From Glaucostegus cemiculus (taxonomy: Eukaryota), in NCBI GenBank assembly GCA_976551045.1, contig CDPCPM010000060.1, forward strand, positions 3,534,001-3,598,000: a stretch of 64,000 nt of DNA, read 5' to 3'. Shown here piece by piece: positions 700 to 60,501 of the stretch. Position 1 is the first letter of the stretch; each line of letters starts with the position of its first letter. Position numbers and translations under genes: made by a program. The notes below the pieces were generated by a model. That model worked only from the letters and a program-made list of their open reading frames with translations. It made no database searches and was not told the origin of the DNA.

Positions 700-1363
700 A
701 AAAGCAGAAAATGCTGGGGATATTCAGCAGGTCAGGCAGCATTTGTGGAAAGAGAAACAGAGTTAATGGATCTTGTCAAAGGCCCTTCACCAGAACTGGG
801 AAAGCAAGAAAACAAATTAATTTCAAGTTGCAAAAAGGGTAGCAGAGGGATGGGTAGGACAAAGGGAATATATCTGAGAGGGTGTGGCCAGTGCTGCCTT
901 GGTGATAAGCTGTTCATGAAGCCATCTGTTTGATAGATTAATGGGAGAAGTTAGAGTGAAAGAAAACAAATAAAGGAACATGTGGAAGTTGTGAAATGTT
1001 GGTCAGAGCTATTAGTAATGACCAGCAGATCAAGTTGTATCAGCAAATAGAGAAAAACTGAATTAATATTACAGATTGATAATCTACATTTAAATCAATC
1101 AGTTCTGATACAGAGAAAGCAAATTACCTGAAACTGTTGAATATGACATTGAATCCTAATGTGCCTGAATGGAACATGAGGCCCCATTCCTCAAGCTTAC
1201 TTTGGGCCTCAGTAGAATAGTACAGGATGCCACCAACAGATAGGTCAGGGTGGGATGGAGAATTAAAGTGACAAATAGCTGGAAGCTCAGTGTCACCCTT
1301 TCAGACTGAATGTAGGAGCTCTGCAAAGTGATCACCCAAACTGAGCTCTTGGCTCTGACGTAG
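700..1363 (-). mobile_element. Penelope-like element (PLE) remnant: end of GIY-YIG endonuclease plus pLTR
   Basis: Minus strand reads as decayed YIGE..LGD.FAE...HFNSP...EAQSKLEE...FNSFR*. Terminal block aaatgctggggatattcagcaggtcaggcagcat at about 709-742 recurs throughout the window. Confidence 0.75.
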
Positions 1364-1800
1364 ACAAGATCACAAGACGGAGGAGCAGAAGTAGCTCATT
1401 TGGCCCATTGAGTCTGCTCTGCCACTTCTTCATGAGCTAAATTATTCTCCCATCTAGCCCCAATTCCCTGCCTTTTCCCCATATCCCTTGATACCCTGAC
1501 TAATCAGATACCTATCAATCTCTTCCTTAAACACCCCCAGTGATCAGGCCTCTACAGCTGTATGTGGTAAAGAATTCCATAAATTCACGACCCTCTAGCT
1601 AAAGAAATTTCTTCTCATCTCTGTTTTAAGTGGGTACTCTCTAATTCTAAAACTGTGCCCTCTTGTCCTGGACTCACCCACCAAGGGAAACAACTTAGCC
1701 CCATCTACTCTGTCTAATCCTTTCAACATTTAGAATGTTTCTACAAGGTCCCCTCTCATTTTTCTATACTCCAGTGAATATAGTTCAAGAGCTGACAAGA
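1364..1800 (-). mobile_element. CR1-clade LINE 3' fragment inserted into the PLE
   Basis: Tail acaagatcacaaga, then ggagcagaagtagctcatttggcccattgagtctgctctgcc, a typical chondrichthyan CR1 3' end in reverse. PLE sequence resumes after 1800. Confidence 0.75.
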
Positions 1801-1918
1801 CCACGTTGTGAGTAATGAATATACTACACTAAGAGTGGGAAGAACTGGAAGTGAATCACTGCTTCGTCTGAAAGGTCTGCTTGGATCTCTAAATGGTTGG
1901 AAAGGATGAGGTAAAAGA
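1801..1918 (-). mobile_element. Continuation of the PLE GIY-YIG coding remnant
   Basis: Minus strand gives F.TKQ.FTSSS...LVYIHYSQRG, matching the PLE motif FQV.QRFTC.S.NLVYCI.C..CG that precedes YIGET. Confidence 0.65.
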
Positions 1919-2450
1919 CCATATTTCTGTCTAGGGTAGGGCTTCTTATACTTTTCCAATGAGGCCCAATGTAAACTTGATGAACAGCACTTCATTTTCT
2001 ATCTGGGCACAATGCAGCGCTCAGGACTCAATATTGAGTTCAACAATTTCAGATAATTTGCTTTCTCTACTGGCCAATTCTGCTATAGGTTACCCATTTG
2101 TAATAGTGACTCTCTTCACTGAAACTACCTGATCTGTTGAGTGTTTTTTATAACTTTGACCTGCATTTCACAGCTCTAACATGTCCCTTTGTTTTCTCTA
2201 ATTTCTCTTATTAATATATCACCTGGATGGCTTCATCAACAGCTTATCACCATGAGAACCCTGGCCACACTCTATCACAGATATTTCCTTTGTCCTGTCC
2301 ATTCTTCCCCAACCTCTCTGCAACTTATAACCAAATTGTTTACTTCCGTTCGCAGTCCTGACAATGGGTCCTCAACCTGAAATATTAACTCTCTCTTTGC
2401 ACAGTTGTTGTCTGACCCGCTGATTTTCCAGCATTTTCTGTTTTTTACCT
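1919..2450 (+). mobile_element. Inverted PLE copy: GIY-YIG C-terminus plus pLTR with hammerhead-like motif
   Basis: About 1962-2057 translates EAQCKLDEQHFIFYLGTMQRSGLNIEFNNFR*; ends with ctgacccgctgattttccagcattttctg, the reverse complement of the block at about 705. Confidence 0.8.
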
Positions 2451-5149
2451 TCACCAGAAGGATTTCAGCCATTCAAGGAAGCAGCTCACCACTACGGAGA
2501 AGGGTGGGGAAAAATGTGAGAGTGAAGTAAGAAGGAACAGTATTAATGGAGTTACATGGCAAGATCTAGATGAACACCGGTGAACAAGTGTCAGTTGAAT
2601 TTATTAAAATTCACTATTAATTCTTAATGCTACACTTAAAGAAACATAGAATCTTACAGTAGGTCATTTGATTTATTATCTCTGACTCTTAGAAAATTCT
2701 GCACAATTGGTCCCATTCATTATTTTTTCTCCATAGCCTTGCAATCACCTATCATAGTGAAAGAGAAAGTAACCCACAGTGAAAGGTCATGTGAGTGTAT
2801 GGATCCAATCAGAAGCACACCAGTGGGGCTGACATATTGGTGTGTGATGCTTGTAGTCTTCAGTTTTAAAGTTAGTGACAGGCTGGAACTATTGAATTGG
2901 GCTACATTGTGTAACTCACTGCCAGCCATCCACAATTCATGTACTCCTCATCATCCAGAAACATGAAACCTGTAAATCATTAATATTAAATATGAAACAC
3001 AATTGATCAGAGTATTTCCTCATTATGTATAATTTGACTCTAAATTGCTGCCACAGTGATTTCTCAGATGCAATTTTGAAATATTTATGTGTTTTTCAAA
3101 ATATATTTATTAAAAAAAGTCCATAATTAGATTAGTGAATCTCATTAATTTCTTAGTCTCTCTTATATTAATTTTTTCCCCTGGAAGATAGAACCTCCAC
3201 ACTGCAAAACCTCCATAAATTGTGAGAGTTGTGGCAATAGCTGTTAAATCTTTTTTGAAACATGGACTGCTTCATAAAATTCCTATTTAAATAGGGATTA
3301 GCTTAATTATTTTATCTTGCACCTGATATTTCAAGCACTTCATTCACTGAAATATTCATGAAAACATGTGACAGATTTGTAAATTTTGTCTTTAACAGTT
3401 ATACACTGCTTTATGAGCATTTTAATCAGGATGTATTTGCTTGAAGAAACCATACGAGGAAGTTAATGATTTTGCTAATTTGAAAAATGCTGGTATGATT
3501 ACCTAAGGTTAACTGATTTGGGCATTTTACAGAATAGAGTACAAAGTAAATTTACTCTCTGCAGCAAGCAATCAGGAAGTAGAACCAATATTCTTACTTT
3601 CTTTATTTGCTTCTGTTGTTTTTTTTGCATTCGATTTCTTTTCAAACTGTTTCTTTTTCTTGTTCCCTTCCTCCTTCTCATTCCTCTCTTACTTTATTAA
3701 ATCTCCCTTGTACCTCATTCCCTGGTTTCTTTTTCAACGTCTTTCCTCCTTTTTTCCTCCTTTCTTTCTCAATCTCATCATTCTCTCTCTCTCTTCATGT
3801 TTCAATGTTTTCATTGGCTATGATTATCTCTAAGAAGTCTTTCACAGTACATCTGATACCTAACCAGTTGGAAGAACAAACTGTTGACCCTCTGTTTGCT
3901 TGAGTCAATAGTTTGTCTCAGAAGCATTCTGTGTAATGGAAGAGGTCAGGTAGACCAGACAAGGTGTCAGCTCTTCAGTTAAGTAATACAACCCCAACTG
4001 GGACTTGGCAGAGTTCCTATGCACAGTGAATATTGTGATTGAATCAGTCCCAGCACTTGAAGTGAAACCCACTGAGAGTGTGCACCTGGCAAGATTGATG
4101 TGAAAAATGAAGACAGGCTTTTGAAAATATTTTCTAACTCATCGTGATGAGATTTGGATCAATTTGTTACCATCTCAATTGCATCCAGGTCAAATCAAAT
4201 TGGACTTGAGACATAATTCCAACACATTCTGGACAAATGCAGCACTGTGTCTTGTGACAAATAACATGTCAAACCATCTGAAAAGATCATTAAACTATTA
4301 AGAAAGCTTGAATCTCCTGCTACTGTGATAGTCCAGTGTAGTTCTGAGCCACAGAAATCAGATACAGATGAAGCAATTGACCCTGCATAAATGCCAGCAA
4401 TCAGTATTTGTCATGAATAATCAGTGCCTGCTTGTCTGCATTTGTAGGCAAAAGGAACTCCTCCTCTTAGCAACAATCCCTATTGGCAGCACTCCTGGTA
4501 AGTAACTCACTTAATCACTTCCAGAATCATTTAATATTACCACAGTGTTACTCCTACTTCCTCCACTGGTGCCTCTAAGCATGTGTGGATCTCTTCCTTT
4601 GGTGTCACTTCTTGCATGTCTCCTCAGCCATGGTCTCAAATATAGGTGTTCTGAGAGGAAGAAGTAAGATGAAGAATGGCGTCATAAAATTGGTGGGGGC
4701 AACAGAGTGTCATCATAAATGGGAGACAGGAGTATGAAGGCAAGAATTTCATTGTGGGTTGAAGGATGAGAAGAATTACCTGCTTTAACTAAGTGTCAGG
4801 TTCTGATTAGCATCAGTGAAAACTTGTGTTGGGCAAGATCAATGGCTCATGCCACTGTGAAAACTTTCTAAAGTGGTTAACAGCCTATTCAGAAACTTGA
4901 GCGTTGAAATTGGAACCTCTTATGCATGTTTTCAATGTGCCAATAATAGTGGTCTTAGCCAGGATAGATTGAAATTGTGATCACCTCTGGGTGAAATTAA
5001 GTATTTGGTGAAACTGGCCCAGGCATTTCCATAATCAATTCATTTTAGTGCAATTGAGTTTTACTCTGTATCTTTTGAACATCAAATGATGCCACAGGTC
5101 ACATGGCACATGTTTTCTGTGCCCATGGCAGAATTGGTGGCTTTTGTGC

Positions 5150-5640
5150 ATCACCTATGATCTTCTCACAGAAAAACTTAGGAAGACATTGCACAGGGTT
5201 TGGAAGTGTGACAGTAGTTAAATGCCTGTCATAAAGATATATCTTACCGACAGCATTTACCAGCTTCACTTTTCAGTGGCCAGCATTGTGGAAAATGACT
5301 TATTGGTGGTTGCTTCACTGATTGCAGCCCCTTTGTACAGACCACTACTGTGTTGCTTGCTACAATCAATGGTTCCTTTACCAGCCCATAACTTGGCAAT
5401 TGCAGTACAATAGTTGTGCAGGATGGACATCCATGTAGCTAGTGCCGAGGTACAAAGGAGGCCACGATTTTCCTCTCCTATGCATTCCCTCATCTCAATG
5501 GCAGCCTTTACTCCACCTATACTGTGGCTGCTATGGGGAGAGTTTTGTTTAGAACTGATTCACTTTTCAACGGTCGACTATGATCTCTGCACAGAGGTCC
5601 TGGCAGGAGTTGCACTGTTCCTGTTTTAGCACATGAACCT
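5150..5640 (+). mobile_element. Highly decayed PIF/Harbinger (HARBI1-type) transposase remnant
   Basis: Frameshifted fragments in the expected order resembling IDC (gattgc), HV.ARY.G.HD (atccatgtagctagtgccgaggtacaaaggaggccacgat) and WLLG (tggctgctatgggga). Weak. Confidence 0.35.
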
Positions 5641-6074
5641 GTATGATTAATGTCATAACTCTTCTTTTGCCTAACTTACAAACTTTTTTAAGAAATCCAA
5701 GTGAGCATTTAAACAAAACATGATCAGTAGATTAAAAGAGTTTGAAATCCAGGTGATAAACCACCAAAACGGATGATAATTTATGTGTGGGGAAATTAAG
5801 CAAAGTCCCTGCAATTTTTACCACAATAATCTTCAATCTGAACAAATTCAAGGGAAGAAGAAAGTTTAACTGGCTCACAGATTAGGGCACAGTAAGCCTG
5901 TGCCTGCTTGCAACTTTAATATAACTACATATCATCAGACGAAAATCAGGCTAGCTTCAAAGTTGGTATATGTTTAGAGGTTATGTCTGCTCTTGCTAGT
6001 TTTCAGACTGGAACCTTTAGACATAATTGGGTAACTTTTGTCAAAATTCTCCTACAACTGAATGAAATTTGTTG

Positions 6075-6627
6075 AATCAGAATCAGGTTTATTATCACTG
6101 ACATATGACAGGAATTTTTTTGTTTTGCAGCAACAGTACAATGCAAGACATAAAAATTACTTTAAGTTACAAAAACAAATAGTGCAAAAGAGGAATAATG
6201 AGGTAGTGTTCATGGGTACATAACCGTTCAGAGATCTGATAGCGGAGGGGAAGAAGCTGTTGAGTGTGGGTCTTCAGGCTCCTGTACCACCTCCCCCAAT
6301 GGTAGTATCACGAAGAGGGCATGTCCCAGATGGTGAGGGTCTTTAATGATGGATGCTGCCTTCTTGAAGCACCACCTCTTGAAAATGTCCTCGACGACGG
6401 GGAGGGTTGTGCCCATGATGGAGCTGGCTGAGTCTCTTTCGATCCAGCGCATTGGAGCCTTCATACCAGGCAATGATGCAACCAGTCAGAATGCTCTCCA
6501 CCAGACATCTGTAGACATTTGTAAGAGCCTTTAATGACATACCAGATCTCCTCCTAATGAAGTAGAGCTGCTGATGTGCCTTCTTTGTGATTACATCAAT
6601 ATGTTGGGCCCAAGATAGATCCTCTAA
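6075..6627 (-). mobile_element. Rex1/Babar-type LINE 3' fragment
   Basis: ORF 6343-6540 contains LTNVYRCLVESILTGCIIAWY and ORF 6228-6473 contains KKAASIIKDPHHLGHALF, both typical of this clade's C-terminus; tail aatcagaatcaggtttattatcactgac. Confidence 0.8.
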
Positions 6628-9194
6628 GGTAGCTATTGGTGAAGATGGGAATCAAGTTTGTCAGCAATGCCCTACATTGTCAAACAACTTGCCAGCTCTA
6701 ACTATCATACGTGGATGAAATAATTGAGCCCAGCTTACAGTATAGGATTGTACTGTTACTAAAAGTCAGCTCATTTAGCAGAAGAGGGCAGAAAAATATG
6801 AAATCAAACATTGTGTTTGAAAGCCAGGAAAATAGAGAGATCATTCCCAAATCTTGGCTTAATTGTCCTCGATTTAATTTTGAGTAGGGCACTTTCTTTC
6901 ACTTAGATAGAAACTAAGCTGGATCAAGCTGAACATTTCAGTATCAGCATTTGAAACTTTCTGGTTTGGTTTTAGAACCCAAAGGAATGAAAGATAGAAT
7001 GGATGTGGCCATTAAACAAGTTACCCAATTTTCCATTAAGATGAATTTTCTTTTGAAAATTGGAGCACACTGAAGCTAGACAATATCAGTGGTAAAACGA
7101 GGCATGTTTCATGTATTCAGGCTATGTCATTGTAGATGCCTTTTCTGCAAACAGTCCTGTGAGTATATTTAACATTGTGGCTTAGAAGTGATTGGCAGAG
7201 TTATTCGTGTTTCGGTGTTGTGAGGTTAATCTTATGTTAAGTTTTTTCTTTCTCTCTTTCCCTTTCTCTTTTATTCTTTCTCTTTCAACCACGTACTTTA
7301 CCTCTTTCTCTTTTTGGAACATTTAAATAATCCATTCTCCAAATATCTGTTGTAGGTTAATGCAGACATTTAAACGGCTTCTTGCTTCACTAAACCAGTC
7401 TATTGAGTCTGCAAATTGACTACAATTCCAGAAACATGTAACTGTGAATAAATACAGGGTTAATTTTATGCTTTGTATGCACACATGTCAGTGTGTGTAA
7501 GGTTATATTTTTCAGTAACCAGAGGGTCATGTAACAGTCTGTGTATTATAACTGGTAATCAAATCCAGCCTTTCCCCATTTGAACTTTAAGTGATTGAAT
7601 CTCTGGTTTTCACTTTGCTGGTGCACCCTGTTGTTTTTTACCATTTTGAGGGAATCGTATAAGCCATGGTGATTACATCACTGACATCAAACAGCTCTCC
7701 GGGATATGACTTTCCCTCATAGGCCTCTGTATTTGCCCTGTGCATAACAGTACGTAGAGTCACACAATATAAATCCATTGGTTTACAGCAATTCACTCCA
7801 GTGATGTTGGAGAGCTTGCACTATTATATGTTTTATGACCCTATAGTTTTGCCTTTTCGGTTAAAGGTCCAGTTATATTTACTCCATGATTTTCTATTTC
7901 TAACATACATTTGAGTCTGCAATTATATTCTTAGAAAGTAACTACTATTCAGTGATATAATGATGTTCTGTTATGTTATGGAGTGGGACAACATAAAATG
8001 ACATCCTATATTTTACTTTCACCGCCAATTTCTTTCCCTTTGTCCTGACTTACAGAGAGTGAAGGTACATAAATGTCTGCAAGTATTCAGAGCCTCGGCT
8101 AAGTAGCCATTTTTCATGGGTGAGGTTGGACAGCTTGTGCATGGGTCCTCACCAATACTTGTATCTTTACACCATCCAGTAGGAGTCAGTGTAAAGTATT
8201 CAGGGATGGGAAATGTATTTTTTCTCTCCTTTCCTGAAGAAGATTCACTGACATTGATTCCTTTTGATTCCATTTACTGCAAGTTTGAAGCAGTACTGAA
8301 TGAGAGAATCTTGGACAACTGATTGTTTTCAGAATCATTTTGGGGTGGTTGGGCAGGAGAGGAGTGGGGAGGGGAAGAAGGGGAGGTGCAGCCTATCGTG
8401 TGATGTATTTACCAAATGATCAGCCAGATGATCAATAGATTATATCCTAAATAGAACCCAAGTCCTCCTTTGCAGGAAGCGAAAGGGTAAATCACTTTTA
8501 GCTAGTCAGTAGACTTCCTAGTGAATCAATGTTGATAGACATGGAGAAGCACTTTGTCTGTCCACTCTCAGACCTGGCAAATGTTGTATTGAATGTAGGA
8601 AAGATCTTTGAACAAACTGTCAACATTTGATTGTAAGGTACTTCAAACCCTTGATGGATTTTCATATGCTATGCACACCCAAGCTCTTTACAGTGGCTTT
8701 CACTGCGGAGCTGGCAAATTCTGTGGGATCCTCAGTTTTCAATTCTCCTTATGAATTCTTCACTAATTTAGGGATCTCTGGTATTGCTGCCAGAATCAAA
8801 GCATTGCCAGATGGAAAGCATAATAAGTTCCATTCTCCAGTAGTGAATTAACACTCACCCTGATGAGTGACAGATTATGTTGGCTCGCATTTCTCAAAAT
8901 GTTCATTTTTAACTATAGTTCTATTTTCTCTCGAGTTTTCTCTTTTAAAAGCATTGATTCATGGTGTGTTCCACAGAAATCAGAAATGCTTAACCACCTT
9001 GCCTAAATAGCCATTCTATATTCGGTAGCTTGTTCAACAAACTGTTCCCCTGTTAAGCCATTTTAGAGAGGTTCAAAGTTTCCTCATCCCATGTCCACAC
9101 ACAGACAATTTCCATTATGAGTAAAAAAAAAGAACAAAAAGAAGGAAATATTTACACTTTTTTATTCTGCCCTCAAGCCAGGTATTGTCAGTAC

Positions 9195-9420
9195 ATTGTA
9201 AAGCCCAACAGCTACCTCGGAGACATGGCAACCAATATGTGCACTGGAAGCTCCCACTTCAGCATTATAAATAATGTCCAGATAAACCTTTTAGTTATTT
9301 TGATAGAGTGATAAATATTAGCCAGAACACCAAAGAATGGACTCTTCTGCTCTCAAAAATAGTGTTTTGGGATCTTTTATATTCATGTGAGAAAGCAAAT
9401 GAGGTCTTAGAATTAATTAC
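9195..9420 (-). mobile_element. DeuSINE-like fragment
   Basis: atggcaaccaatatgtgcactggaagctcccac...gataaatattagccagaacacc...gggatcttttat resembles the copies at 36150 and 41895. Confidence 0.5.
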
Positions 9421-9469
9421 TTGTATTTCTTAAATCTTTTCAGCAAGGGTTACTTTGGGGCATGGCACT

Positions 9470-9797
9470 GGGCACCACAGTGGTGTAGTGGTTAGCACTG
9501 CTGTCTCACAGCTACAACGACCCAGGTTCAATGCTGACCTTGGCTGCTGTCTGTGTGGAGTTTGCATGTTCATGCTGTGATAACAAAGGTTTCCTCTGAG
9601 TGATCTGGATTCCTCCCACATGCCAAAATTGGGTGGTTAGTGGGTTAAATGGCCATTGCAGATTGTCCCTAGTGAGAGTGGGTGCCAAGAGAATCAGGGA
9701 AGAGAGTGGTTGATGGGGATGTGAAAGGAAAAATGAAATTAGTGCTTGATGTTTGCATGTGGGCTGAAGGGCCTGTTTCCATGCTCTGTGATTCTTT
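9470..9797 (+). mobile_element. tRNA-derived V-SINE (HE1-like)
   Basis: A box tggtgtagtgg, B-box-like ggttcaatgc, V domain gctgtctgtgtggagtttgcatgttc...ttcctcccaca, CR1-type tail gggctgaagggcctgtttccatgct. Confidence 0.85.
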
Positions 9798-11424
9798 GTA
9801 AGTTCAAATTGATTCAGCCTCTGATTCCAGTGGAAGGTGTCCTAGTGTATAAAATTCTTTGTTATTCGCTGCTTCAATTTTAAGTTTACCTGATATTGAA
9901 CTGAGAATCATATCTTTGATTGATAAACTAAGTTAGATGATTAAGCTGTGAATCGTACCTTTTAATGTACTTTGTATTGCACTTCATAAAGGTGAACATA
10001 AGCCTCACAATAATTACTTCTCGTAAATTGTGAAATTAGTTAGGAATGAATTGCTTCAGGTGGGAAAACCTGCAGATTGGGAAATGCTTGCAAATGTCAA
10101 GCTTGAGGCCAAGAGAAACGTACATGGAATAACTTTTACTTTCACTCTATTTAGGATTGCTGCGCTCAACATGTGAGCGAGGCACTACCGTGCCATGCAT
10201 TTTAGAAGGGAAATCTTAAATGAATTGAGAGTCTAGTGAACATAACTAACAATCTGGGTGATGCTGTTTTATAGTAAGCTGATTAAAAAGAATCATTTTG
10301 GCCAAATGCCTGTTTGAAATAGCTTGTACTCAAAACCCATACAAGATAGTGCTGCATAGTTGTAATTCAGAGGCATTTTAAAAAGGTCCTGTGTTTACCT
10401 TCAAAAAAGAGACAGCTCTCTGCTTAGGAAGTTTCTGCACCGAGATTTAATATAAGGTTGCTAATTATCTGCATGGGCAGAGGATTTATGAAGAATTATA
10501 TTGTACTTTGAGTTTTATTTTTCTTCACCATATCCACAATTATTTTTACATATGGTAGAAGGCAAACGAGACTGAGAGTGTTGGGAGGCAGCTGCAATAA
10601 ACCTGTTCTGCACAGGGCTCAGGAGATGCAGATAGAAGGCAGAGCTGAAGGTTCAATCTTCTGCTGAAGGAGAAGGGGAAAATAAAGTGAAGATACAGCC
10701 CCAAAGTTGTTTTGATTTCAACTCCTGTGCCTTGCATTCTAAAAGGTACTGGCAAAAGTCTGGAATAGTTTGCCAAACCTAAACTGTGGCTGGTGTGCTG
10801 CTTGGAGAATCCAATGGAGAAGGAAGCAGAGTCTATTGTCAATTTTTTACCAATCTTCTTATCCCATTTTTAAAAAGTTGCAGTTTCCAGTGTTTCCTTT
10901 CACTTTTGCCTCTATAGTTTCTGAGCTCAAGGATCAGCAGGTGGCTTGTTTCCATCTTATGGTCAGTCTTGGTGTTGAGACAGACATTAGTGGATATGTA
11001 AAGGCAATTTAAAATCACTTGTTTAGGTCTTTCTGCTTGGCTTTCACCCCAAACAGCCCACTAAATGTTAGACAAACATGTTGTGGTGAACCCTGGCATG
11101 CACTGCATCCAATGACACCTCCATCCTCACTCTCACAGGGCACTCACTGGCCAGCCATCCACTAGAGACATCCTGGCAGATGCCCAAAAGACTCTATGGG
11201 AAGTCTAGTTTATTTTGTGCACCTAATTCATTGGCAGAGCGAACACAAGCTGAGGCTGAAAATAATTCTCACCATCTGAGGTTGAAGAGGGTGGATTGAA
11301 GGAGATTTCCATTTCCAGTGAGAAGATGGTGGTGAGAGGAGCAGGGTTCAGAATGGAGAATAGATCCAAATGATTCTTGTGAAGCTTGCAAAAGTAAACC
11401 TTTTCCTCCAAGCTGTACAAGAAA

Positions 11425-11708
11425 GGTAGTGTAGCAGTTAGTGTAATGCTGTTACAGTGCCAGTGACCCGGGTTCAATTCCGGCCACTGTCTGTGAGTTT
11501 GTACGTCCTCCCTGTGTCTGCGTGGATTTACTCCGTGTGCTCCAGTTTCCTCCCACATTCCAAAGAAGTACGAGTTAGGAAGTTGTGGGCATGCTATGTT
11601 GGCACCAGAATTGTGGCAACACTTGCAGGCTTCCCCCAGAACACTCTACGCAAAAGATGTATTTCACTGTGTTTTTCTATGTACATGTGACCAATAAAGA
11701 TTTTTTAT
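11425..11708 (+). mobile_element. tRNA-derived V-SINE
   Basis: B box gggttcaattcc; V domain gtttgtacgtcctccctgtgtctgcgtggatttactccgtgtgctccagtttcctcccacattccaaag; aataaa near the end. Confidence 0.85.
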
Positions 11709-11766
11709 CTAAATGTATATACTTACAAGGGATTCCATTCTGACTAGACCAGCTGTTTACGCTGGA

Positions 11767-12080
11767 GACAAAAACACAAAATGCTGGAAATGCTCAGCAG
11801 GTCAGGAAGCATCTATGGAAAAAGAAACAGAATTAACATTTCAGGGCCAATAAGAGAAGGGCAGAACAAACAGAATATTTCTGGTAAGGTGAGTTAGATG
11901 AAATAATGTGATATTCTCTTTGTCCTAAGCATCCCTCCCCCATTTTCTCTGCTACTGAAAATTAACTTGCTTTCTCACTTTTTGAGTTCTGACAAAGGGT
12001 CTCTGACCTGAAACATTAACTGTTTCTCTTTCCATAGATGATGTCTAATCTGTTGAGTATTCCTATTTTTTTTCTGTTTT
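11767..12080. mobile_element. Short PLE derivative with inverted pLTR ends
   Basis: Left end aaaatgctggaaatgctcagcaggtcagg...aattaacatttcagg; right end cctgaaacattaactgtttctctttccatagatg...tgagtattcc is its reverse complement. Confidence 0.75.
11985..12021 (+). ncRNA. Decayed minimal type-I hammerhead ribozyme motif
   Basis: AGUU-CUGACAA-AGG(GUCUCUGA)CCU-GAAA-CAUU-AACU: stem I AGUU/AACU, stem II AGG/CCU; core G8>A, and the stem III palindrome ACGU>ACAU. Confidence 0.6.
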
Positions 12081-12703
12081 TGTTCCCCACGTCCAAGAAT
12101 TTTTTTTTTGGTTTTCGTAAAATGATGATGCTGGGGAAGTGGGTCTGGGACCAGAGAGACTAACCAACATAATGGATATACAGGGCTTATTTTGAGAGAG
12201 GCTATCAACTTGCAGTATACACTTTGGTTAATCTTGGCCTAATATGTCAGTATTGTATGTCATGGGCATTTTAAAGGATCTGTTACCTAACACGGGCTGG
12301 TACTTCTACCACCCAAAGGTTGATGTTGGGAAGAAATGGCAAATGGGAGTAGCTCAGGTAGAAATGTTGGTCAGCATGGACGAGTTGGGCCAAGGGACCT
12401 GTTTTTGCACAGTGTAACTCTATAGATCTATGGCTCTAAAGGGCAGCTGCTAGGCAGCAGTAATGCAGTAGTGAGGAAGGTCCCAATAAGTCCTGGATGC
12501 TGCATTCAAATTCTGCCAGAAGCTTCAGAATCATTGTGACAATAGCAGGCTTTCTCTCTTAGCAAAATATTTATCATCTGTATTTAAATTATTACGCATA
12601 TTAGCACATGCTTTTTGAACACTTCAAATTATTTTAGTGAAGTAGTATGGCACTTATTGAAATTATTGAATCTATGTTCTTCTCCTTTACATTTAACAGC
12701 AGA

Positions 12704-12946
12704 ATGTCTTCCAAACAAGCTGCCTCTCCGTACGCTGCTTCTGCTGATGGGGAGGAAGCAATGGTCCAGGAAAGATTGGTACGGGAGAGGGAAAGGGAGG
12801 AGCTCAATGACCAGCACACAGCCTCACACCTGCCCCTGCATACAATAGTAATCAACAAACCTCATGCTGAGGAGCTACCACCTGTTGTCAGCAGCCTCCA
12901 ACCAGACAGTGATTGGGACAACATGGCTACCACCCAGCACAGAGCA
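12704..12946 (+). CDS. SOX6: SOX6 first coding exon (exon starts about 12700; ATG at 12704; 81 codons; phase-0 donor)
   Basis: Translates [22 protein letters not shown]...[32 protein letters not shown]...QHRA, closely matching the vertebrate SOX6 N-terminus as I recall it ([20 protein letters not shown]...SHLPLHPIMHNKPHSEELP...DADWD). Pyrimidine tract plus CAG acceptor at 12697-12699; donor GCA|GTAAGT at 12946/12947. Confidence 0.96.
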
Positions 12947-14899
12947 GTAAGTACACTGCCCAACCATTTGCTAAGATTTAATCATTATGCTTCCCAGGCT
13001 TTATTTTTCCTATGTGCCTTAAGGTAAATTCAATCATATCACTTATAACCAGGTGCATTTTTATTTTGGTTACTACTGGAGGTAGTGGATAGTTCATTTA
13101 CTTAGCACCCCACCAGATTTTCATATCTATTAACTTTAATGAAAACAAGCATCGAGTGATATTGTAAACTGTACTTGGATCTACTACTACTTGTTTTCCA
13201 CCTGATACTAAAATTCAATCATACCTATTGATTTCTTTGAATGCAGTACCCGATGACAATAAGAAGTTTTGTCACAATTTTCTGTCTTGCTCTTTCAAAG
13301 AGTTTGATCATTTCAAAGGGTGCCTGTAGTCTCAGGGTGCGTTGCCAAAGTAGTCATTCTTAAGCTGGTATTTTAACAGTTGCTTAGTCATATAAAAGCA
13401 GTTGCTCAATATCCATGCATGCACACATTTTCCAGTATAGTTCAGAAGGTGGTGATCAAACAACGGGATTCTTGACATTGGCCTCCCAACCTTAGTTCGA
13501 GATGTTGAGATAGACTGCTGTCTTTCAACTGCCAGAGCTGCCTTGGCAAAGAGCAGGGGTTAAGTCTGTGGTCTTTTTGGGTTGTATCCATGCGCAGCTT
13601 ACTGTGTGATTAATTTAGCCTGAGCCAGTGGGGAATCTCAAAAGTTTAAACATGTATTTTACTTATAATACAAATGGTGAATGAAAAATAGATTCACTTG
13701 CAAATTTTGAGTACAATCATATGAAGTACCCTTGCCCTTTTTTATAAGATGCACTAAATGATTTTGTGGTGACAATCATTCTGTTGATTTTAACTTAAAA
13801 ATACTGTAACTCTGCTCTTCATAAAATGCAAAGTAAAGAGAATTAATTCTCCAGGAATACTGCTCTTCCCAGTGGTTAATTTGGCATTCAATTCCTTCTA
13901 TCCCCCACCACTCAGCACAACCCCATTCACTGGCAACCCACAGGTACTCTCCTTGCCCTATGGGAATATTTGTCCCAGTCCTTTGATTACCTTTATTGCA
14001 GCATCAAGGCAGGGTATGAGAATTGGAGCTGAAGTGGAAACTTCCTGGTTTCTAATTCGAATTCTTTGCACAGCTGACCATGATGCTGTGACTTTACTAC
14101 CTGAACAAAAGCATTAAGAGTGATTGTGATCATTTAGAATTTAGACAGTTATCTAAAAGTTTTCTTATAAGGTAATCGATAGTTTTCCGTATCCTTAGAC
14201 ATACCTCTGTTGTGCTATGTTAATAAAGCTTTAAAGCATTTAACTCTAACATTTGGAAGAAGCCAAACCCATCTTTCTTAAATTGATTGGCTGCATTAAT
14301 TCTGTGAGCAGAAATTATTACAAAATGAGTAGTGCAGTTCGACTTGTGTATTTTATTATAACAAATTAACTTTCCCCACCAAATATTTTACTAAGACTCC
14401 TCTTGATCTAGATATTATGATTTTGATCAATACATTTAAAAAATAAATTGAAAATATATTTCAATTAAAAGTACAATTGAAAAAAAATTATAGCCTAGAA
14501 GTGAAAGAGATGACTCTTAATTTTTTTTGTGTGTAAGCTGGATCAGGGACAATCCTTTGAAAACTTCTTGATGAAGCAAAGATTGTTAGCAGATAATTTC
14601 ACTCGTGCAGGTTTGAAGGATTTGTGGAATCCTTCAATAGGAGGGAAGAGCTACCAAGTGAGGCAGAATAAACTCTGGAAAACTGTGTTCAGACTTACAA
14701 ATCTGTGGAGTTATCCGAGGCTAGGCTAGAGATATTGATCAGTCAACAGATGAAAGTATATATGGTGAACTGTTTGATTAAAGTCAGAAAAGGGAAAGTA
14801 CTGCCAAGGTTGCTTAGATGTTGCAAATATTGTGGGCGATGTGATGAGTGGCTGAGAAAGAAATGGCCTGTGCTAGGGAAAAAGTGTCAATGATTTGAT

Positions 14900-16140
14900 T
14901 TTTTAAAAAATTACAAACAGTGTATGATGACGAAGACTTTGGAAGTTCATGAAGTGGACGAGATGCATTGTGCAGGGAAAGAAACAGGGTTGGAGTTCAA
15001 GTTAAAAAGCCTGTTTCCATATGAGGTCAATTACACATGAAGAACATATAATAGATGTATCAATGCCAAGGTATTGCTGCAAGAGCAACCAGTGGCATTT
15101 GATCTTGACTTGAGAGCAACAGGTAATGGCCCCAAAAGAAAGTCATCAATCTCAAGACAGTTGAGTTAAGCTTGCTGAGTCATGTGCTGTCAGCATACAA
15201 TGAGAGTATATTGAAGGTGCTTGTGAGATGCTAGCTGAAAGTGGTGAACTCAAATAATCATAAAAGCTATTATGTGGATTTCAGCATAGTTGACTGAAAA
15301 TATGTCTTGTCTATACTTTGAAGTCCTAAAGTACAGCGATAGTCTTAGTGAGGTAAGGACCATAGAAGGTGACTTCCTTCTGGTTATTGGGAAGTAGCAG
15401 AATTGGATCAGAATTGTACAGCACTGCTTGGGAAACATCAACCATCCGAGCAAGTTCCTGCCCCATTGAGTGAGATGTATGATCCCCTCAGACATCTGAC
15501 CAAAAGGATGTGGAATGGTGTTGGTTAAATACTCATGAGCAAGCAATCAAGATAATCAAGGAGAAGTCACAGCAGAATCAATGTTGAAATACCTTGATGA
15601 TACCTAGTAGCTGACACCATACGCAGATGCTTCAGAAAGGCGTCTTGGAGCAATGATCTTGCCAGAGAACCAGCTGACAGCATATTGAAACAAATTTGAC
15701 AAACATAAGGATGCGTAAATATAGGAGGGGCAACCAGATATGATCTTTGGATTGGATAAGTTTCATCAATATACTTAGGGGACAACTGTAAATGTGTACC
15801 GTTATCAAAAGCAACTCAGAACCATTGTTATTAAACTCCTGGAAAGGCTGCCAAGGAGATTGCAGAGCATATTTGTGAGGAGGCAGGCATACAACCTTTA
15901 CAACAAGGCATTCAGTACTACATGGGCAAACAATCTCAGTAACCAAGGCACTTAGCTGATTCTAACTCAAGGTGACCTGATCTTCAGAGCCAACAGAGTA
16001 ATTGATCCCTGACTTCAAAAGAATAAAATGATAAAGCACTGTTACTTCTTTTGTCTTAGAGTGAATGATTGACTCTGCAGTGTAAGAGGAAGTATTAGTG
16101 GGCAGGGATGAATAGGGAGATTGGGGAGCATGTATAGGAA
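14900..16140 (+). mobile_element. Decayed Ty3/Gypsy LTR-retrotransposon pol (RT/RNase H region)
   Basis: Broken frames in order: KFLP.LSEMYDPLRHLTK.DVEWCW (~15450-15525), DASERRLGAMIL (~15625-15660), GLDKFHQYT (~15750-15778), LPRRLQ (~15850). Confidence 0.7.
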
Positions 16141-19100
16141 CATGAGAAACTACTGATTTGTAGAGAAGTATTTATATATTCACATTTATCACTGTGCCCC
16201 TACAATGTTCTCCTCACTTCCTTGTCTCTGTCATCCAATTTGCGAAGTAAAATACTTTGGGAGATTTTGCCAGAAGTGTTAAACAAATGAAGTTACTTTT
16301 GTTGTGATGCTGCTTCTGGTTGCCAGGACCCCATTGTCCAGGTCTGGAACTTGCACCTACTTGTAATTAACCACACTGACAGTAGAATCTGTAGGAGCCA
16401 CTGTGGTCAAAAGGATAGTTAGATATATGTGGAGAGATGTTTTGTTCTGCCCAGGGAATCACCCTTGGTGAGAAACAGAGCTGTAAGGGAATATGTAGAT
16501 TTATTTTGATCAGAAAGTGCAAAAGAGGCAGAATGATTTTGATATAGATCACTAACTGAGGAATGGAATATCAGCCAACATTATCTCTCTTCAAAGGTGA
16601 AAGTTTGCAGAATGTTTCTGAGCCAAAATGAGAGAGAGGGTAAAAGGTTAAAAAACCAAAACAGATTAAGGGAGGTTGAATTAATATGTGCTGGAGTGTC
16701 ACCAAGCAGGGCAAAGTAAAAGAAATTTGCTTTTTGATTTCAGCCAAAGAAATGTTCTAATGGTTACAAATACTATTAATCCCAGGCCTACTTAGCAGAC
16801 AGCAAGATATCAATTTAGAATTGCACCAACTTGGCCTTGCTGAACAAATCATTCATATAAAATTGTGTAGCCTCAATATAATGTGGGGGTTGGGGACAAC
16901 TTTCACATCTGCATTTCAAGATGCTATCTTATAAATAAAATTAACTTAACTTGGGAACTTTTTCTGTTATATATAAAATATAGTGCATACACAACCAGTT
17001 TGAACAGATTTCCCCAAATTCCACCCCATTCTTTCCAATCAATCTTTTTTGCTATAATCTCACAGCTACAATTTGTAAAACATATCCCCAGTGCTGGATT
17101 GCTAATCGTTTTCCAGAATCCATTGCCCCCTCCTCAGGATTGCTGTTGTCAGAGGGAATTGCACAAAACAAAAAGGTCTGTTACATTCTGCTGGGAAGAT
17201 TAATCCCTCCTTGTAACACTGGAATAAAAATGCACGCTGTCCTTAGTGACATAGTAATGCCACTGGTATATCTGAAACCATGATATAATGAGACAGGTTA
17301 TATTGAAGTTGCACTGTTTGGGGAAATGCATTCCAAGTGTATTCCAAGCAATTTAGAAGATATTGCTCACTGTATTCTCCATTGATTAGGACTATTGCAA
17401 TATATTATTTCACATATTTTGGGAGATTTTCATGTTCATTCTGGAGAGGATTACAATCTTGGGAAATGGATCATTTTTAGCACCAATGTCAGTACTGAGC
17501 ATTCCAAAGTTGTTAGTTATGGTATGGTTACATGCAGGGGAAAAAAAGCTCTCTCCGCTACATCAAGTACTCCCAGGTTGACTTTAGCTTTAGTCAAATG
17601 CAGAGCAGGTCCTTTTTCTATTCTGTTCCATTATGCACATATAGGGATTGCACAGATTAAATGCTGTGTAAAATCTTTTAATGCAATTCAGCATTCTCAA
17701 ATGAGACATCTGCTAAACTGAAATGAAATGCTTCCTCTATACTTTATTTCATTAGGTGGAGGAACAGAGGTGTTGCCAGTACACTGCCCATTATCACTTT
17801 AATTGTTGTTCAAATGCCCAATTTCTGTAGCAGTTTCTTTTGACTTTATTGCTTAGTTTTATTTTCATACCTATCCACCTGGGCAACATTGCTGCTAAGA
17901 GCATTGAGTTCCAAGAAACCCTTGGCCAGTAGCTATAAGGCCAGGCTCTACTACAAATCTTATTCAATGGTAACTCAACTGGAGGAATTTTTCTAATTTA
18001 GCTCACATTTTGAAGGACTGATGCTCTTACTAATTTCAACTGAGCCATCAATTCTGCCTTGCGCCTCCAGTCAACTATCCTAAAGTTCTTTTAGTTAGAA
18101 ACATATTTAGATCCTTGTACCTTTCAATGTCGCCACTACATTTCCAAGCAGCAAGTCTGCCAATAATCTTAGGTGAGAATTCTTTTGGTCACCTACCATT
18201 AACAATTCCTTTGACCAACCTCCATTAACAATAATGTTAACATTGCAAGAGGCATTCTCATATTTTGTATTCCCTGAATGAAGAAATTAAAACAAGAGTG
18301 AACCTAATGCAGCTGTCACTATAATGAATGTGGCCTATGTAAAGGCTAAAGATGCAAGATATTGGCACCCAGTATGTAGTAAGAGTTGTGACCTACTCTT
18401 TCTTTTAATATACAGGCTATTGGTGCAACAGTTAAAATATGTTACTTCTACTGAGAACATCAACAAGTGAATCATACTCTAAAAATATTGCTTTTCAAAA
18501 AGACTTCTGCAATGTTGACTTTTATGCAATTGTCAGAGTTCTAGTCAGTATTAAATCTAGCCAGTTTGGCTAAATTTTGACATCAATATCTCAGAAGTAG
18601 AATCTACCTTTTTAAGAACTGATTTATTGTTATAAGCTGTGTTGTATTTTATATTATTTAAGCTTTGATTTGGGGAGAGGAGAGGCATGTTTCATCACCA
18701 CTGTCGTTTGAGGATACATGTCAAATGAATATTGCCTATTGATGTATCCCAGCCTGAGTAACAAGCCCCATTGCAGATAATTGAAATTCCCTATTTGAAT
18801 TCTACCAAGTATTATTTTATTTTCAGCAGACATCTGAAAACTGGATGACTGCATCAATTTAATTTAATTTAATATAACTCAATTTAATTCAATTCAACTA
18901 GCATTCTGCAGGGTGGAGGAGAGAAAAAGAATGTGGATGCTTTTAAACTTCCATAAGCATACTCAACTCACAACTTTTTGCCTCAGTATGGCTTTCATGT
19001 CTATAAGTTAGTGCCAATTAGTTTTTTTAATGTATGAACTGAACAGGGAGGTGGTTCAGTATTCATACTTTTAATCATAAATGTAAACTTTCATTTGAAT

Positions 19101-24110: not shown

Positions 24111-24159
24111 TATCTACGTTTTCCCTAAGTAAAAACCTACATATGCTGGAAACTGGAAA

Positions 24160-44654: not shown

Positions 44655-44752
44655 ACCATGGAAAATGCTGGAAACATTCAGCAGGTCAGGCAGCATCTGT
44701 GGAAAAAGAAACAGAGTAAATGTTTCAGGTTGAAAACCCTTGATCAGAACTG
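44655..44752 (-). mobile_element. Solo PLE pLTR end with hammerhead-like motif
   Basis: Minus strand: AGUU-CUGAUCA-AGG(GUUUUCAA)CCU-GAAA-CAUU-UACU, followed by ccacagatgctgcctgacctgctgaatgtttccagcatttt. Confidence 0.75.
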
Positions 44753-47700
44753 ATGCACATTTAAAACAATGATATACATTTGATCAGGTTTGATGAGGGC
44801 ATGTATCAGTTAATGGCCACTGGAAGGCATCAGATGGTGCTGGTCACAGAATAAAAACAGTATTGCTCTGCAAGCTGGCCTGTTTCAGTGCCTTTATTGC
44901 AAACTTGAGAAATACAGGTGGAAGTCAGGAAGTGTGCTGCAGCGAACCATCAATATTCCAAAGATTTGGAGTTACAAAAAGGTTGATATGTCATGGTTAA
45001 GAAATGTAAATAAAGGTAGATTATAAGAAGAGATGACGTGAAGTCAGAAGTTGCACTAAAATCTAAGAAATAAAGGACTAGATCATTAACCAACTGGAAG
45101 CCACCTGAGTGGTTGCCTGTCATTGGACTGTGCTGTTTATTTGAGCTGAATCTGATGTCTTCTTCTGGGAGGCCACGTCTGAGCTCACAAGTGAGGTCAA
45201 TTGCAGCAGAATGCAGTGCAGGGGCTCCTTGGGGACAGCCAGTAGACTGCACTCCCATAAAGACATTGACAGGTGGCAAGGTACTGCCCCCAGTTGGCTG
45301 CCAAAGCTCTCACTTAAACTCAACATTTGTCACCCAGAGGGTATTAACAAAAACAATGATTAAATAAAATGATTAGAACCAAATATTTTCTAACATATTG
45401 AAGCACTAAAGTGTGCTCATGCACATTTAAAACAATTATATACATTTAAACTACAATTAAATCAAATGAAAAGGTGCTCCCGGCAGGCATTTCATGATCA
45501 TTTCAATAGACGGCTGGACTTGCATCAGATTAACCGACTGCAGGTTCAGCAGGCACATTTCCCTGCCTGAGTGTTGGAAAATCAGTAGATGTTTCTGCTC
45601 TCCCTTTGGATTCTCGGTGGAGTGCCAGTATTGGAGCCAAAAGCTTATTGGAGTAGAAGACTGCATTTCTGCCTATGCATAACAGTCCTGAGCTTCTGCT
45701 CAGTTAAGTGTTTAAAGACCAACAAATCCAACCAACCTGCTAACTTTTAAGCAGAAGATCTGTCCCTGAGTTTAGAGGAAAACTCAGTGCAAGTGACAAA
45801 TCTAAAATTCATATTCAAACTGTAGGGAGGAGGAACTGGAGATTGGGGGAAGAAAGAGAATAAAATTCCATAACCATTAAGCAATATAAGAGAGCCTGCA
45901 ATAGAGAAAGAGTGGCTGAAGTTCAGAGATTAAATACAAAAGATGGATCTCACAACTGAAATCAAAGAACTTCTGGACTCCAATTCTTTCCTCTCTAGTG
46001 TAATAATTCTCAACTTTGTCTCTATTATTATTGAATATCAGTCAGCCGTATTTTTTCATTGCTGATTATTCTAACAAACGACACCATGTCCTGATTGTGA
46101 TGCAGGTGTTTAAAATTCATTTCCATTCAATTAGCACAATGCAACCTCTCTTCCTCACTTAGCATGGCCAATTATGGCATCCACATAGACATCCTTGCCT
46201 GACTACTCTTTGCCAACTTGATGAATTGAGTCCGCGTGCTTGCAATGCTACAATGTACAGTGTTCTGCATAATTTGGGACTTCCTCGTATATACAGCATC
46301 CTTAAAATAAAGACATTAGTGCCCTGGGGCAGTGGCTAATAACTAGAAAGGCAGAGCGGCATCCAACAAAGCACTATAAAACAGTGAGAAAACTGGTTTC
46401 AATACTGGGGAGATTTTAAGACATTTCACTCACCATGGTAAGTGTTTTCCATTAATTAATATGCCTTGCTTTTGATTACCGGTGATAAAAGAGGATTTTA
46501 CATTTTAAATAATCTGGATTTAAATATATTTTCAAGAGAATGTTGCTGTGGATGCTGATTACAATAATACTGCAGGGTAAAAGAAACAGCATTGACTCAG
46601 ACAGTGCCCTGAGTTACAGTGGTTCAACCATCCCCATACCTCACCATATGCAGTTCTGTAGCTTGTTCAAGCCTGCAGGAATTGCCAGTCGCATTGGCAT
46701 AGAAACTGATGACTCTGAATTCTCTGGCTGATGTTATATGCAGTTCAGATGCTGTCTTTAAATCCATATGTTGTTATTTTTGCAAACTGTTTGCATTTTA
46801 ACTAGGCTTAATTTAAAGCATTTACATTTTGGATAAACTAAAAAAAACTGTTCTGATTGTCAAGAAATGCCAGGGAAGTGGATGTGTTTGCATAATTGTT
46901 GGATCTACTGATGATCAATCAAGTATAAAGGGGATAATAGGTTTTAACATTCTAATTATTGTTACTGTGTATTGTTCAGTAGATTTTCCACCAAGCTGGA
47001 GGATGTCCTGGTTGATTTTTGTTCCATAGCCCATATTTACTGATGTTGATTTTACTACACACTCCAATCTTTCTTTTTCTATTGTAATCATTCTCATCTT
47101 TGTCTATCATTAGATTTCAGTGTGCTTGCATTTTTAATTATTGATGAGGGCATATTCATCAATCTTAACCCTGTCACTTAGAGATTTTAGTTCTGATGAA
47201 TCAAATACACTATTTCCAGTGGAATCAAAGGCAATTCTGGCCAAATTACATGAAGAATAATGGGATGTCCCAATGACATATAAAAACCATTGATGGAACA
47301 TTGAGTATTGACTCTTTGCAATCACATTGTGGTTTACTTGACCATATAATTGAAAGCTCCCTACATAACAAACTGTGCCAGTTTTGGTCAGGGAGCTGAT
47401 ATGCCCATATTCCATAATTATGAAGGGTGCATGATTCAATCACATCACATTTATAGTAGCTGGAGATTTAAATGTAAAGAGAATTTAACGTGTTTCAATA
47501 AGAAAATTCGGAAGGATTTGGATTGGATTTTACTACTGTTTGGTGCATTGGCAATACATTTAGGTTGTTAATTATATAATTGCTTTGACTGTAATCTTAG
47601 CTCTGAAGTTACACTTGAATATTTTTTATCCTTGTGTACAAATTTCTTCTTTAATATTTTAATATCTGATCACTGTGAATGAATGAAGGAGCTTCCAAAT

Positions 47701-48790: not shown

Positions 48791-48859
48791 AGTTTCTATG
48801 CAAGTCCAAAATCAAATTCCAGCAGCATCTTATTGTGATAGGTCAGGCTGGATAATTCT

Positions 48860-49220
48860 AACATTCTCTTTGATTCCAGATTTTCAGCAACTGCAGTCAT
48901 TTGCTTCTCACATTTCCAGCATTGTTCTTGTTTCTTTTTCCTCTATCCTTAGTCATCTCTTTCTATTTACATCTCCTGCAGAACTATCAGCTGTGACTAA
49001 CAGTCCTCTCTAACTGATACCACCTCCATATGTCATTTAGTCTTCCCTGGTCTCCACCTTTACACAGATATTGCTTTTGTGGTCTCCAGTGCTCACCCTT
49101 CTCCACAACTTAAAGCATCTTTGATCTTGAACTTTTCCTTTTGGTCATTGGCCCAAAACATTAACTCTATTGCTCTTTCCACTGTTGTTGCCTGACCTGC
49201 TGGGTATTACCAGCCATTTC
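48860..49220 (+). mobile_element. PLE 3' end / pLTR remnant
   Basis: cccaaaacattaactct...ctttccactgttgttgcctgacctgctgggtattaccagc. Confidence 0.6.
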
Positions 49221-49477
49221 CCTTAATATCAGTGGACATAGAAATTTATATGCAATGAGAAATGATTCTAGAATTGTAAAATTGACATTTACTCATGTAT
49301 GTGTGCCCTTGTCCATACATAATGTATAACTGACATGGCATGACAGTCTGAGTTTTAAAAATGGCATCAGATGTTCTGTCACCAAAAATATGCAGGACCA
49401 AGTCACCACATCGCATTAATTCACCATCTGTAACTATTAAACCTGTATATCAAATGAAAATGTACTTGTAGCAGTGC

Positions 49478-59142: not shown

Positions 59143-59189
59143 CTATCAGTGTAGGGGCTGACGATTGACACAATACTGAGAAATAAGCA

Positions 59190-59600
59190 AATAAGTAATA
59201 GAAAAAGAATGCCATACGGCCTCCTGTGTCTGCTCTACTGTTCAATGATCATGGTGTGATCTTTGGCCTAAATCCACTTTCCTGCTGTATCTCCATGTCT
59301 ATTAATTCCCCCAGAGTGTAAAAATGTATCTCAGCTTTCAATATACTCAAACAATCAGCATCCACAGCCCTCTTGGGTAGAGAGTTTCAAAGATTTGCAA
59401 CACCATGAGAGAAGTAATTCATTCTCATCTCAGTCTTTAGTGACTAACCTCTTAACCTGAGGGCATGCTCCCTAGTTCCACACTCACTAATCAAGGAAAG
59501 CCTCTTTTACTGCATCTACCCACCACCTCCATCAAATGTCCCCTCCAAAATCTTATAGCTTTCCTTGAGATTACCTCTCATTCTTCTAAATTCAGAGTGC
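59190..59600 (-). mobile_element. CR1 LINE 3' fragment
   Basis: gccatacggcctcctgtgtctgctctactgttcaatgatcatgg...tccacagccctcttgggtagagagtttcaaagatt. Confidence 0.7.
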
Positions 59601-60463
59601 AATCCCATTCTACTAAATCTCTACTCAAAGGAAATTCCCATCATCCCAAAACAACTTTCTTATTCCCAGGAAACTTTTTAAAATTATTATTTGAGCCTTC
59701 ACTGCACCATCTCCAAGGCAAAGATATCCTGATGCAAATTTGTACGATTTTCGATTTTGGAGCTGATAAACACCTCCATTTAACTTAAAATGGTTCAATC
59801 CGAGATGAACTAAATACATTAGCTCTAATCCTAAATTTACTTAATTAATATGATGCAGTTATTTACAGCTTCAGTGTATTAGCCATGAGCCTGACATCCA
59901 ATTAACATGCTATGGCTATTCATTTATCTGGCCTATCAACCCTGAGCCTGTGTTGATCTAATTAATGATAAACTAGTCATTACTGCTGAACTTGGGTGGA
60001 TCTTCTTGATGTACTGATATCATTTCTTAAGTTTATAAACCCTAGACCTGAACTTGACCTGGTCAAACTAAAGTGCCACACAAGTATGCACTTTTCTGGT
60101 CATTTATGCTGGACTTGACCTGTCAGCAATCAGTGTTCTAAATCTGATTTAATTACAACATTAAATCTTGGCGTCACCCTAAATTTATAGAAAACTGAGG
60201 CTGTCAAAGCCAACATTTGGGAAGAAGGTGGATTCTTTCTAAATGTTCATACTTAATTTTTTCTAAACTTGTGCCATTAAATTCAATCAGGACAATAATT
60301 TTGTATTTCTTTGTCAAACAAATCAGTTTTCTTCTAACATCTCTCAATTGCACAACATGAAAAAAGAATAAATGGAGCAAAACTCCTTCACTGTCCCTTT
60401 GTATGCACAGAAGAGTACAAATTTTTTTTAAAGTGACGTCCTTAAATTTCAAAAGGAGAGTGG

Positions 60464-60501
60464 ACAGTTCTGATGAAGGGTCTACAACCTGAAATTTTAA
60501 C
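60464..60501 (+). ncRNA. Minimal type-I hammerhead ribozyme motif with intact core boxes (solo PLE remnant)
   Basis: GUU-CUGAUGA-AGG(GUCUACAA)CCU-GAAA-UUUU-AAC: both conserved boxes intact, stem II AGG/CCU, stem I GUU/AAC; the ACGU palindrome of stem III is lost. Confidence 0.65.

Follow-up and report, generated by a model that had tools for sequence, protein, structure and literature searches.

The window, which is the whole 64 kb stretch of DNA analysed here (G000:C60:3534001-3598000, within an assembly of 2.85 Gb), carries two coding exons and 12 pieces of one dispersed repeat family (Table 1). At 12704 lies an exon that shares 80-94% identity with named SOX-6 proteins from elasmobranchs (sharks, rays and skates). 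HMG-box exons lie approximately 277-285 kb downstream of it on the same strand, and more SOX6 exons were found on the plus strand, out to approximately 301 kb from the window start. These matches therefore identify the host gene, by its sequence, as the SOX6 of a cartilaginous fish, in agreement with the preliminary description of this DNA, which had named the SOX6 locus. All 12 repeat pieces lie in or upstream of the coding part of SOX6. The single stretch of Ns (21909-22067) is outside the repeat finding.

The preliminary description had listed seven hammerhead units and three weaker traces, and all ten were found again at the same positions and on the same strands, together with two further pieces (those starting at 11759 and 24128). 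All 12 pieces gave their top score with the model of a single subfamily, A (see below). The seven named copies matched the profile with E values from 5e-45 to 8e-21, although the model was built from these same copies. A search of the genome with one copy gave at least 40 further matches of 84-91% identity (40 scored of 1,488 candidates).

Table 1. Coding exons and Penelope-like element (PLE) pieces in the window
Feature	Position	Strand	Basis and remarks
5′-truncated PLE copy: endonuclease C-terminal remnant 1127-1339, pLTR, hammerhead remnant 761-797, tail	679-1345	-	tblastn E 4e-9 to PLE protein piece; three core lesions
5′-truncated PLE copy: last 38 endonuclease codons 1940-2053, pLTR, hammerhead remnant 2354-2390, tail	1940-2449	+	tblastn, profile
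Tail and 3′ half of hammerhead; inverted partner of 11909-12099	11759-11847	-	profile
pLTR end, hammerhead remnant 11985-12021 (G8 lost), tail	11909-12099	+	profile
SOX6 first coding exon	12704-12946, end approximate	+	SOX-6 protein match; few RNA reads of a relative over the exon
Tail alone, without hammerhead	24128-24221	-	profile
Stub: hammerhead remnant 24828-24863 (C3 and stem I lost), tail	24745-24863	-	profile
Stub, heavily decayed (weak trace near 32940)	32873-32969	-	profile
SOX6 second coding exon	38600-38790, bounds approximate	+	short motifs in frame, which we take to be SoxD motifs
Decayed longer copy: endonuclease end 40211-40321, internal deletion, broken hammerhead, tail (weak trace near 39930)	39863-40321	-	profile
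pLTR end, hammerhead remnant 40462-40497 (G12 lost); inverted partner of 39863-40321	40371-40559	+	profile
Stub from 5′ edge of stem I; hammerhead 44714-44752, G8 and stem III lost	44647-44752	-	profile
pLTR end beginning approximately 100 nt before core; core mostly erased (weak trace near 49150)	49045-49235	+	profile
Stub from 5′ edge of stem I; hammerhead 60464-60501, core letters kept, stem III palindrome lost, tail partly deleted	60464-60528	+	profile

The first two copies of Table 1 are arranged head-to-head, with the 3′ end of a LINE (approximately 1345-1800, minus strand), presumably of CR1 type, in between. Three pieces contain endonuclease remnants (1127-1339 minus, 1940-2053 plus and 40211-40321 minus), the first two detected by tblastn (the second with E 2e-7) and the third by DNA similarity. 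The earlier statement that several copies sit beside GIY-YIG fragments therefore holds for the adjacency, but the remnants come from the C-terminal part of the endonuclease and lack the GIY-YIG motif itself. Each of the seven named copies has at least one lesion in the core or stem III, as had been described. The copy at 761 is altered at A6, A14 and A15.1, those at 2354 and 11985 at G8 and a stem III pair, that at 24828 at C3 and in stem I, and that at 40462 at G12. The copy at 44714 is altered at G8 and in stem III, and that at 60464 keeps its core letters and has lost the stem III palindrome. Two other features were observed nearby. A 32-base direct repeat (94%) at 44750-44781 and 45416-45447 encloses 634 bases directly adjoining the 5′ end of the 44647-44752 stub, and may represent a second insertion with a long duplication. 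A near-perfect palindrome of approximately 410 bp (28973-29380, arms 91-97% complementary) has a fold-back or MITE-type look and is unrelated to the hammerhead family.

The longer copies run upstream into endonuclease and reverse transcriptase (RT) remnants, which supports the Penelope-like pLTR origin proposed earlier. The linkage to PLE reading frames also extends to other loci whose tail is the same, and every piece ends in that tail. Where long frames were sought out, in 20 loci, remnants of RT and then endonuclease stand ahead of a pLTR and tail of the same kind. The 30-residue endonuclease end of the window pieces gave 25,750 first-look candidates in the genome, of which 150 were scored. 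Loci of subfamily A carry upstream RT and endonuclease remnants that match PLE protein pieces, including a CX4CxxC linker; this linker was seen, partly decayed, in the subfamily A loci L035, L083, L084 and L087 and in L112, which belongs to a sister subfamily. When relatives of a sister-subfamily peptide from the GIY-YIG region were scanned, five of the six longer than 750 aa carried both RVT_1 and GIY-YIG, and the sixth GIY-YIG only. No full-length or open-frame PLE was found in the 20 loci picked for long frames, where the longest PLE frames were shorter than 280 aa, and neither the ORF start nor a tandem pLTR-ORF junction was seen in them. None of eight PLE pieces from the genome reached the Pfam cut-off (the best, in one of the eight, was GIY-YIG with E 0.021), and three of three window peptides gave no Pfam match. 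Two long open frames were noted beside pieces of the family: an 815-residue frame adjoining a PLE piece (L129:3996-6440), which by eye we take to be a retroviral gag-protease-like region, and a 347-residue frame adjoining a head-to-head stub pair (L028:1960-3000), presumably a kinesin motor-like region.

In the accessible text of Craig et al. 2021 (PMC8557442), a CX2-5CxxC linker marks the Neptune and Nematis clades and is absent in Penelope/Poseidon. Because a CX4CxxC linker precedes the endonuclease here, the element is assigned, by this motif, to the Neptune/Nematis type. A Poseidon (Penelope/Poseidon clade) label was rejected because the linker finger is present. The element shares with the endonuclease-bearing Neptune/Nematis PLEs, as far as the same accessible text describes them, a C-terminal GIY-YIG domain with two internal cysteines, the linker before it and a DKG-type RT motif, together with 5′ truncation, an inverted 5′ copy and an optional tail of 30-40 bp. 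It differs from them in that an intact ORF was not found in the host genome loci examined. That the window repeats belong to a Penelope-like element and have decayed is nearly certain. As a full explanation, including the origin of the stubs, it is highly probable that they are decayed, 5′-truncated end pieces of a Neptune/Nematis-type PLE with a minimal type I hammerhead in its pLTR, and that they are likely to be inert.

The architecture of a minimal type I hammerhead, proposed on first inspection, is present in the source sequence: CUGANGA, an extra nucleotide, stem II, GAAA, a palindromic pair, UH and stem I. Four main source types, A to D, emerged when 197 pieces were clustered, with A splitting further; their tails diverge from the majority sequence by 18% (A), 9% (B), 16% (C) and 15% (D). 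In subfamilies A and B the majority letters spell the full motif, as do those of C except at position 4. The genome contains 2,771 exact matches to a pattern for the intact core, and none to the reversed pattern. A search of the window with Rfam yielded no hammerhead and five weak unrelated matches, and the single-strand folding energies of 10 sequences were no better than those of shuffles (z -1.6 to +1.7).

Two pairs differ between the subfamilies. Beside the core, stem I has a U-A pair in A and a C-G pair in the three others (U-A 55, C-G 40, off-diagonal 26); at 10.1-11.1 those three have G-C, and A has G-U (36) or A-U (22). The source-level changes keep base pairs at both places. These are true compensations, but they represent few source-level events rather than many independent ones, and a formal covariation score for 25 aligned copies fell within the shuffle range (110 of 500 shuffles). 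U11.1 in subfamily A was considered as a product of CpG decay and this was rejected: a pattern with G-C at 10.1-11.1 and the stem I of A matches the genome once (A has 84% T and 76% G), and U11.1 is therefore the source state. The ACGU palindrome required for a dimer is also the source state, and the hammerhead is predicted to cut only as a dimer.

Some subfamilies depart from the expected core. A C follows G8, where A9 is expected, in 78% of 36 subfamily D copies, and position 4 is A in 47% of 30 subfamily C copies. Both changes exceed decay and were therefore present in source elements that still spread; subfamily D and approximately half of C spread with an altered core. The C after G8 in subfamily D could instead be a bulge before A9. 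Subfamily A has a branch-point-like motif, a pyrimidine tract and CAG immediately ahead of the core, and a second such set approximately 25 bases past the cut site; the second of these acceptor-like stretches is followed by a conserved ATG. Sense copies of subfamily A could act as cryptic acceptors.

The source CpGs are at positions 7-8 and 15.2-16.2 in A, and at 11.1-12 and 15.2-16.2 in B to D, and all are half decayed. This agrees with the earlier view of a once-active system with frequent CpG decay, and the decay is largely through CpG loss. Since the core CpGs are half decayed, methylation would silence the motif fast after insertion. Among 66 subfamily A copies, identity was 0.836 in the core versus 0.829 in the tail (p 0.79), and subfamilies C and D had a slight, non-significant core excess (p 0.25 and 0.10). 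The core has decayed at a neutral pace, and the CpGs inside it have been lost faster. Abundance was determined in 1.464 Mb, consisting of 664 kb around the window and 800 kb from three other long genes. This sample contained 270 tail-bearing pieces of at least 20 bits, or 184 per Mb, which extrapolates to approximately 5 × 10^5 pieces genome-wide, from a sample that is non-random and of long introns. A relaxed descriptor of the intact motif was passed by two of the 270 pieces and by none in the window, and exact intact matches of subfamily A number only 50 in 2.85 Gb. The window copies are likely to be inert.

The 5′ starts of the 270 pieces peak at -6 to -2, where stem I has its 5′ edge: five bases hold 73 starts, versus 104 in the 45 flanking bases (p 2e-27). 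These positions come from alignment and are uncertain by a few bases. No excess of starts was found at the cut site in the same 270 pieces (eight in four bases, p 0.52). Target-site duplications were found in seven of 46 solo stubs, versus 1.9% in shuffled pairings. Five of the seven end at -3 to -7, and the inserted DNA therefore begins there. Counted from C3, the 3′ ends fall into groups near +100 and +120 (two clusters in subfamily A), resembling the two ends that define the PLE tail in the accessible accounts of known PLEs. Paired pieces are head-to-head in 59 cases versus tail-to-tail in six. Of 45 close pairs, 42 are of one subfamily and eight have outer duplications (0.6% in the control); the head-to-head pairs are one insertion apiece, with the type of inverted copy that PLEs are described as having. 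A second cluster of starts, at -95 to -100 before the core, comprises nine of 150 subfamily A pieces (for example, 40371 and 49045 in the window); these have a few first letters in common, and one start site would not account for both clusters.

The letters around -4 fit what we take to be the initiator consensus, and also a splice acceptor. In the mechanism that we propose, the element RNA would begin approximately four bases before C3, and the element RT would prime internally in the tail, as the anole element does in vitro. Priming in the front pLTR copy, followed by run-off at the uncut 5′ end, would yield stubs of approximately 100-130 nt, the commonest class. Cleavage would then be unnecessary for stub insertions. 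We consider this run-off origin of the stubs to be reasonably probable.

The start at -4 to -2 could alternatively be a 3′ splice site, or a point at which RT stalls at the folded motif, rather than a transcription start. A pyrimidine tract and CAG do lie just before the core in all four subfamilies, and the upstream letters are lost gradually over -6 to -3. There is also a precedent in Drosophila virilis, where a pLTR intron ends at helix I (PMC4209133, accessible part) and where transcripts are, in the accessible literature, mostly spliced. However, no pLTR-derived first exon was detected upstream of 85 stubs, the scores being equal to those of shuffled sequence, and in five stubs the duplications adjoin the start and leave no space for an exon. 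A spliced-exon origin of the stubs was not supported on these grounds. A splice site or RT stall, taken together, is an unlikely source of the fixed start, the stall being the one of the two that may still apply.

The preliminary description had also invoked short non-autonomous derivatives. The stubs would then be a separate retrozyme- or SINE-like family, in which short masters are transcribed, cut by the hammerhead, perhaps circularised, and mobilised by PLE protein. Short pieces far outnumber long ones (59 of 270 extend beyond -25), nine pieces have a second fixed start near -98, and sequences of the younger subfamily account for many reads (4,936-17,791) in the RNA runs of a relative; moreover, the accessible part of bioRxiv 10.64898/2026.07.22.740005 derives animal retrozymes from PLE pLTRs. 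Against this, the stubs occur in all four subfamilies without a shared upstream sequence of their own, and they begin ahead of the core, not at the cut site. In that accessible part, tandem units arranged head-to-tail are the defining mark of retrozymes; the pairs here are head-to-head, and there were no head-to-tail tandem units with whole hammerheads among the 12 window pieces. The short pieces thus have no sequence of their own and are found in every subfamily, and a separate family is improbable.

RNA was examined in three raw runs from a relative of the host that was not shown to be the same species. Strand ratios from these runs, whose strandedness was uncertain, were left out of account. 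Thousands of the relative's reads match a young copy, mostly with 85-95% likeness. Sharp RNA 5′ or 3′ ends, including a start at -4, were absent from these reads, although fragmented libraries would hide such ends.

A count of sense and antisense copies had been suggested as a way to detect selection against cleavage of pre-mRNA. The strand test covered 1.09 Mb of genic sequence, comprising the SOX6 coding span and three long laminin-G-domain genes; the latter were delimited only by same-strand Laminin_G_2 exon matches and base skew. Sense and antisense copies numbered 92:128 (p 0.018), and solo pieces 41:75 (p 0.002), with the same direction in all five stretches, whereas CR1 (198:186) and an HE1-like SINE (114:102) used as controls were unbiased. 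If the hammerhead cut host pre-mRNA, and was thus active in vivo and harmful, sense copies would be purged from introns and such a depletion would result. However, the ratio was the same with a whole hammerhead (27:50) and without one (13:20; p 0.67), and lesion-free cores were no rarer in sense (13 of 63) than in antisense (12 of 82). An L2-like control was equally biased (23:48), and the 213 kb that precede the first coding exon went the opposite way (18:8), giving a total of 110:136 (p 0.11) when included. That stretch is, judging from base skew, probably also SOX6 intron transcribed from the plus strand. The acceptor-like motif of the tail, or an insertion preference, accounts for the bias equally well. 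The selection suggested earlier was thus not borne out, and purging by the hammerhead is decidedly improbable; the mild antisense bias may be real, but is not assignable to cleavage. The L2-like LINE fragments thus form a second antisense-biased family in the sampled introns, beside unbiased CR1 and SINE copies.

Co-option of one or more window copies for SOX6 regulation is very improbable: the copies are placed in SOX6 introns, and the one at 11759 is apparently common to a relative approximately 5% diverged (one contig spans flank and repeat), but their density (12 per 64 kb) is that of the background (184 per Mb), every core in the window is damaged, and in the three RNA runs no read linked a copy to a SOX6 exon, including the copies near 12 kb, at a low exon depth of 2-5. 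For SOX6, the window copies are very likely irrelevant, being background repeat debris.

A hammerhead within a pLTR is an arrangement already known, published as early as 2014 (Cervera and De la Pena 2014; PMC4209133). The accessible part of that paper places minimal hammerheads (min-HHR) in the pLTRs of metazoan Penelope-like elements, including the Xena, Poseidon and Neptune elements of fishes, and covers the motif, dispersed truncated copies, opposite-strand pairs and low activity. Like the motifs described there, those of the present family have a type I core without helix III, an extra nucleotide after position 9 and a palindromic 15.2-16.2 pair; as there, one genome contains several consensus families, mostly as dispersed single motifs from truncated PLEs, with some opposite-strand pairs 100-700 bp apart. 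In contrast to the conserved G10.1-C11.1 pair of the min-HHR in the accessible text, the window's subfamily has G-U or A-U. The same text gives 4,000-9,000 descriptor matches in coelacanth and Xenopus; the present family is far larger with decayed pieces included, and of similar size if the count is confined to intact ones (2,771). The accessible part does not mention cartilaginous fishes by name.

The closest functional comparison is with PAc, a Poseidon element of Anolis carolinensis, which in the accessible text of Frangieh et al. 2024 (PMC11167929) primes internally and does not require cleavage in vitro. Its hammerhead is at the pLTR-ORF junction and, as here, has two 3′ end points downstream of it and no RNA reads at the cut site. 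There are two differences. PAc, the element assayed, belongs to the Penelope/Poseidon clade without the linker finger, whereas the host element has a linker, as read from its sequence; and the PAc ORF starts within stem II, whereas here the nearest conserved ATG is approximately 25 nt past the predicted cut site. Animal retrozymes share with the present family a type I hammerhead and a relation to pLTRs, but they are head-to-tail tandem arrays, whereas the pieces here are dispersed singles or head-to-head pairs; the accessible part of bioRxiv 10.64898/2026.07.22.740005 reports non-LTR retrozymes in one sampled chondrichthyan and their depletion in Xenopus introns. Background on PLE promoters is given in the accessible part of PMC2377424. 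No study centred on the PLE hammerheads of sharks or rays, or on a fixed stub start, came up in a search that covered mainly the body text of openly accessible papers.

Returning to the run-off origin, a broader reading would take the approximately 10^5 stubs as a fossil record of PLE copying. The stubs would be run-off cDNAs from internal priming in the front pLTR, the RNA start would be the first base of stem I, and uncut RNA would be the template in vivo; subfamilies with altered cores would have kept spreading, and the ribozyme would have a job other than template making. We put the chances for and against this whole reading at about even. The stubs start at a fixed point ahead of the core, cut-site starts show no excess, and core variants spread; all three fit the in vitro result that insertion proceeds without cleavage. 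The run-off reading predicts a capped RNA start at -4, and the approximately 2,800 intact younger copies allow a direct cleavage assay. The family thus constitutes a large natural data set on the role of the hammerhead in the PLE cycle.
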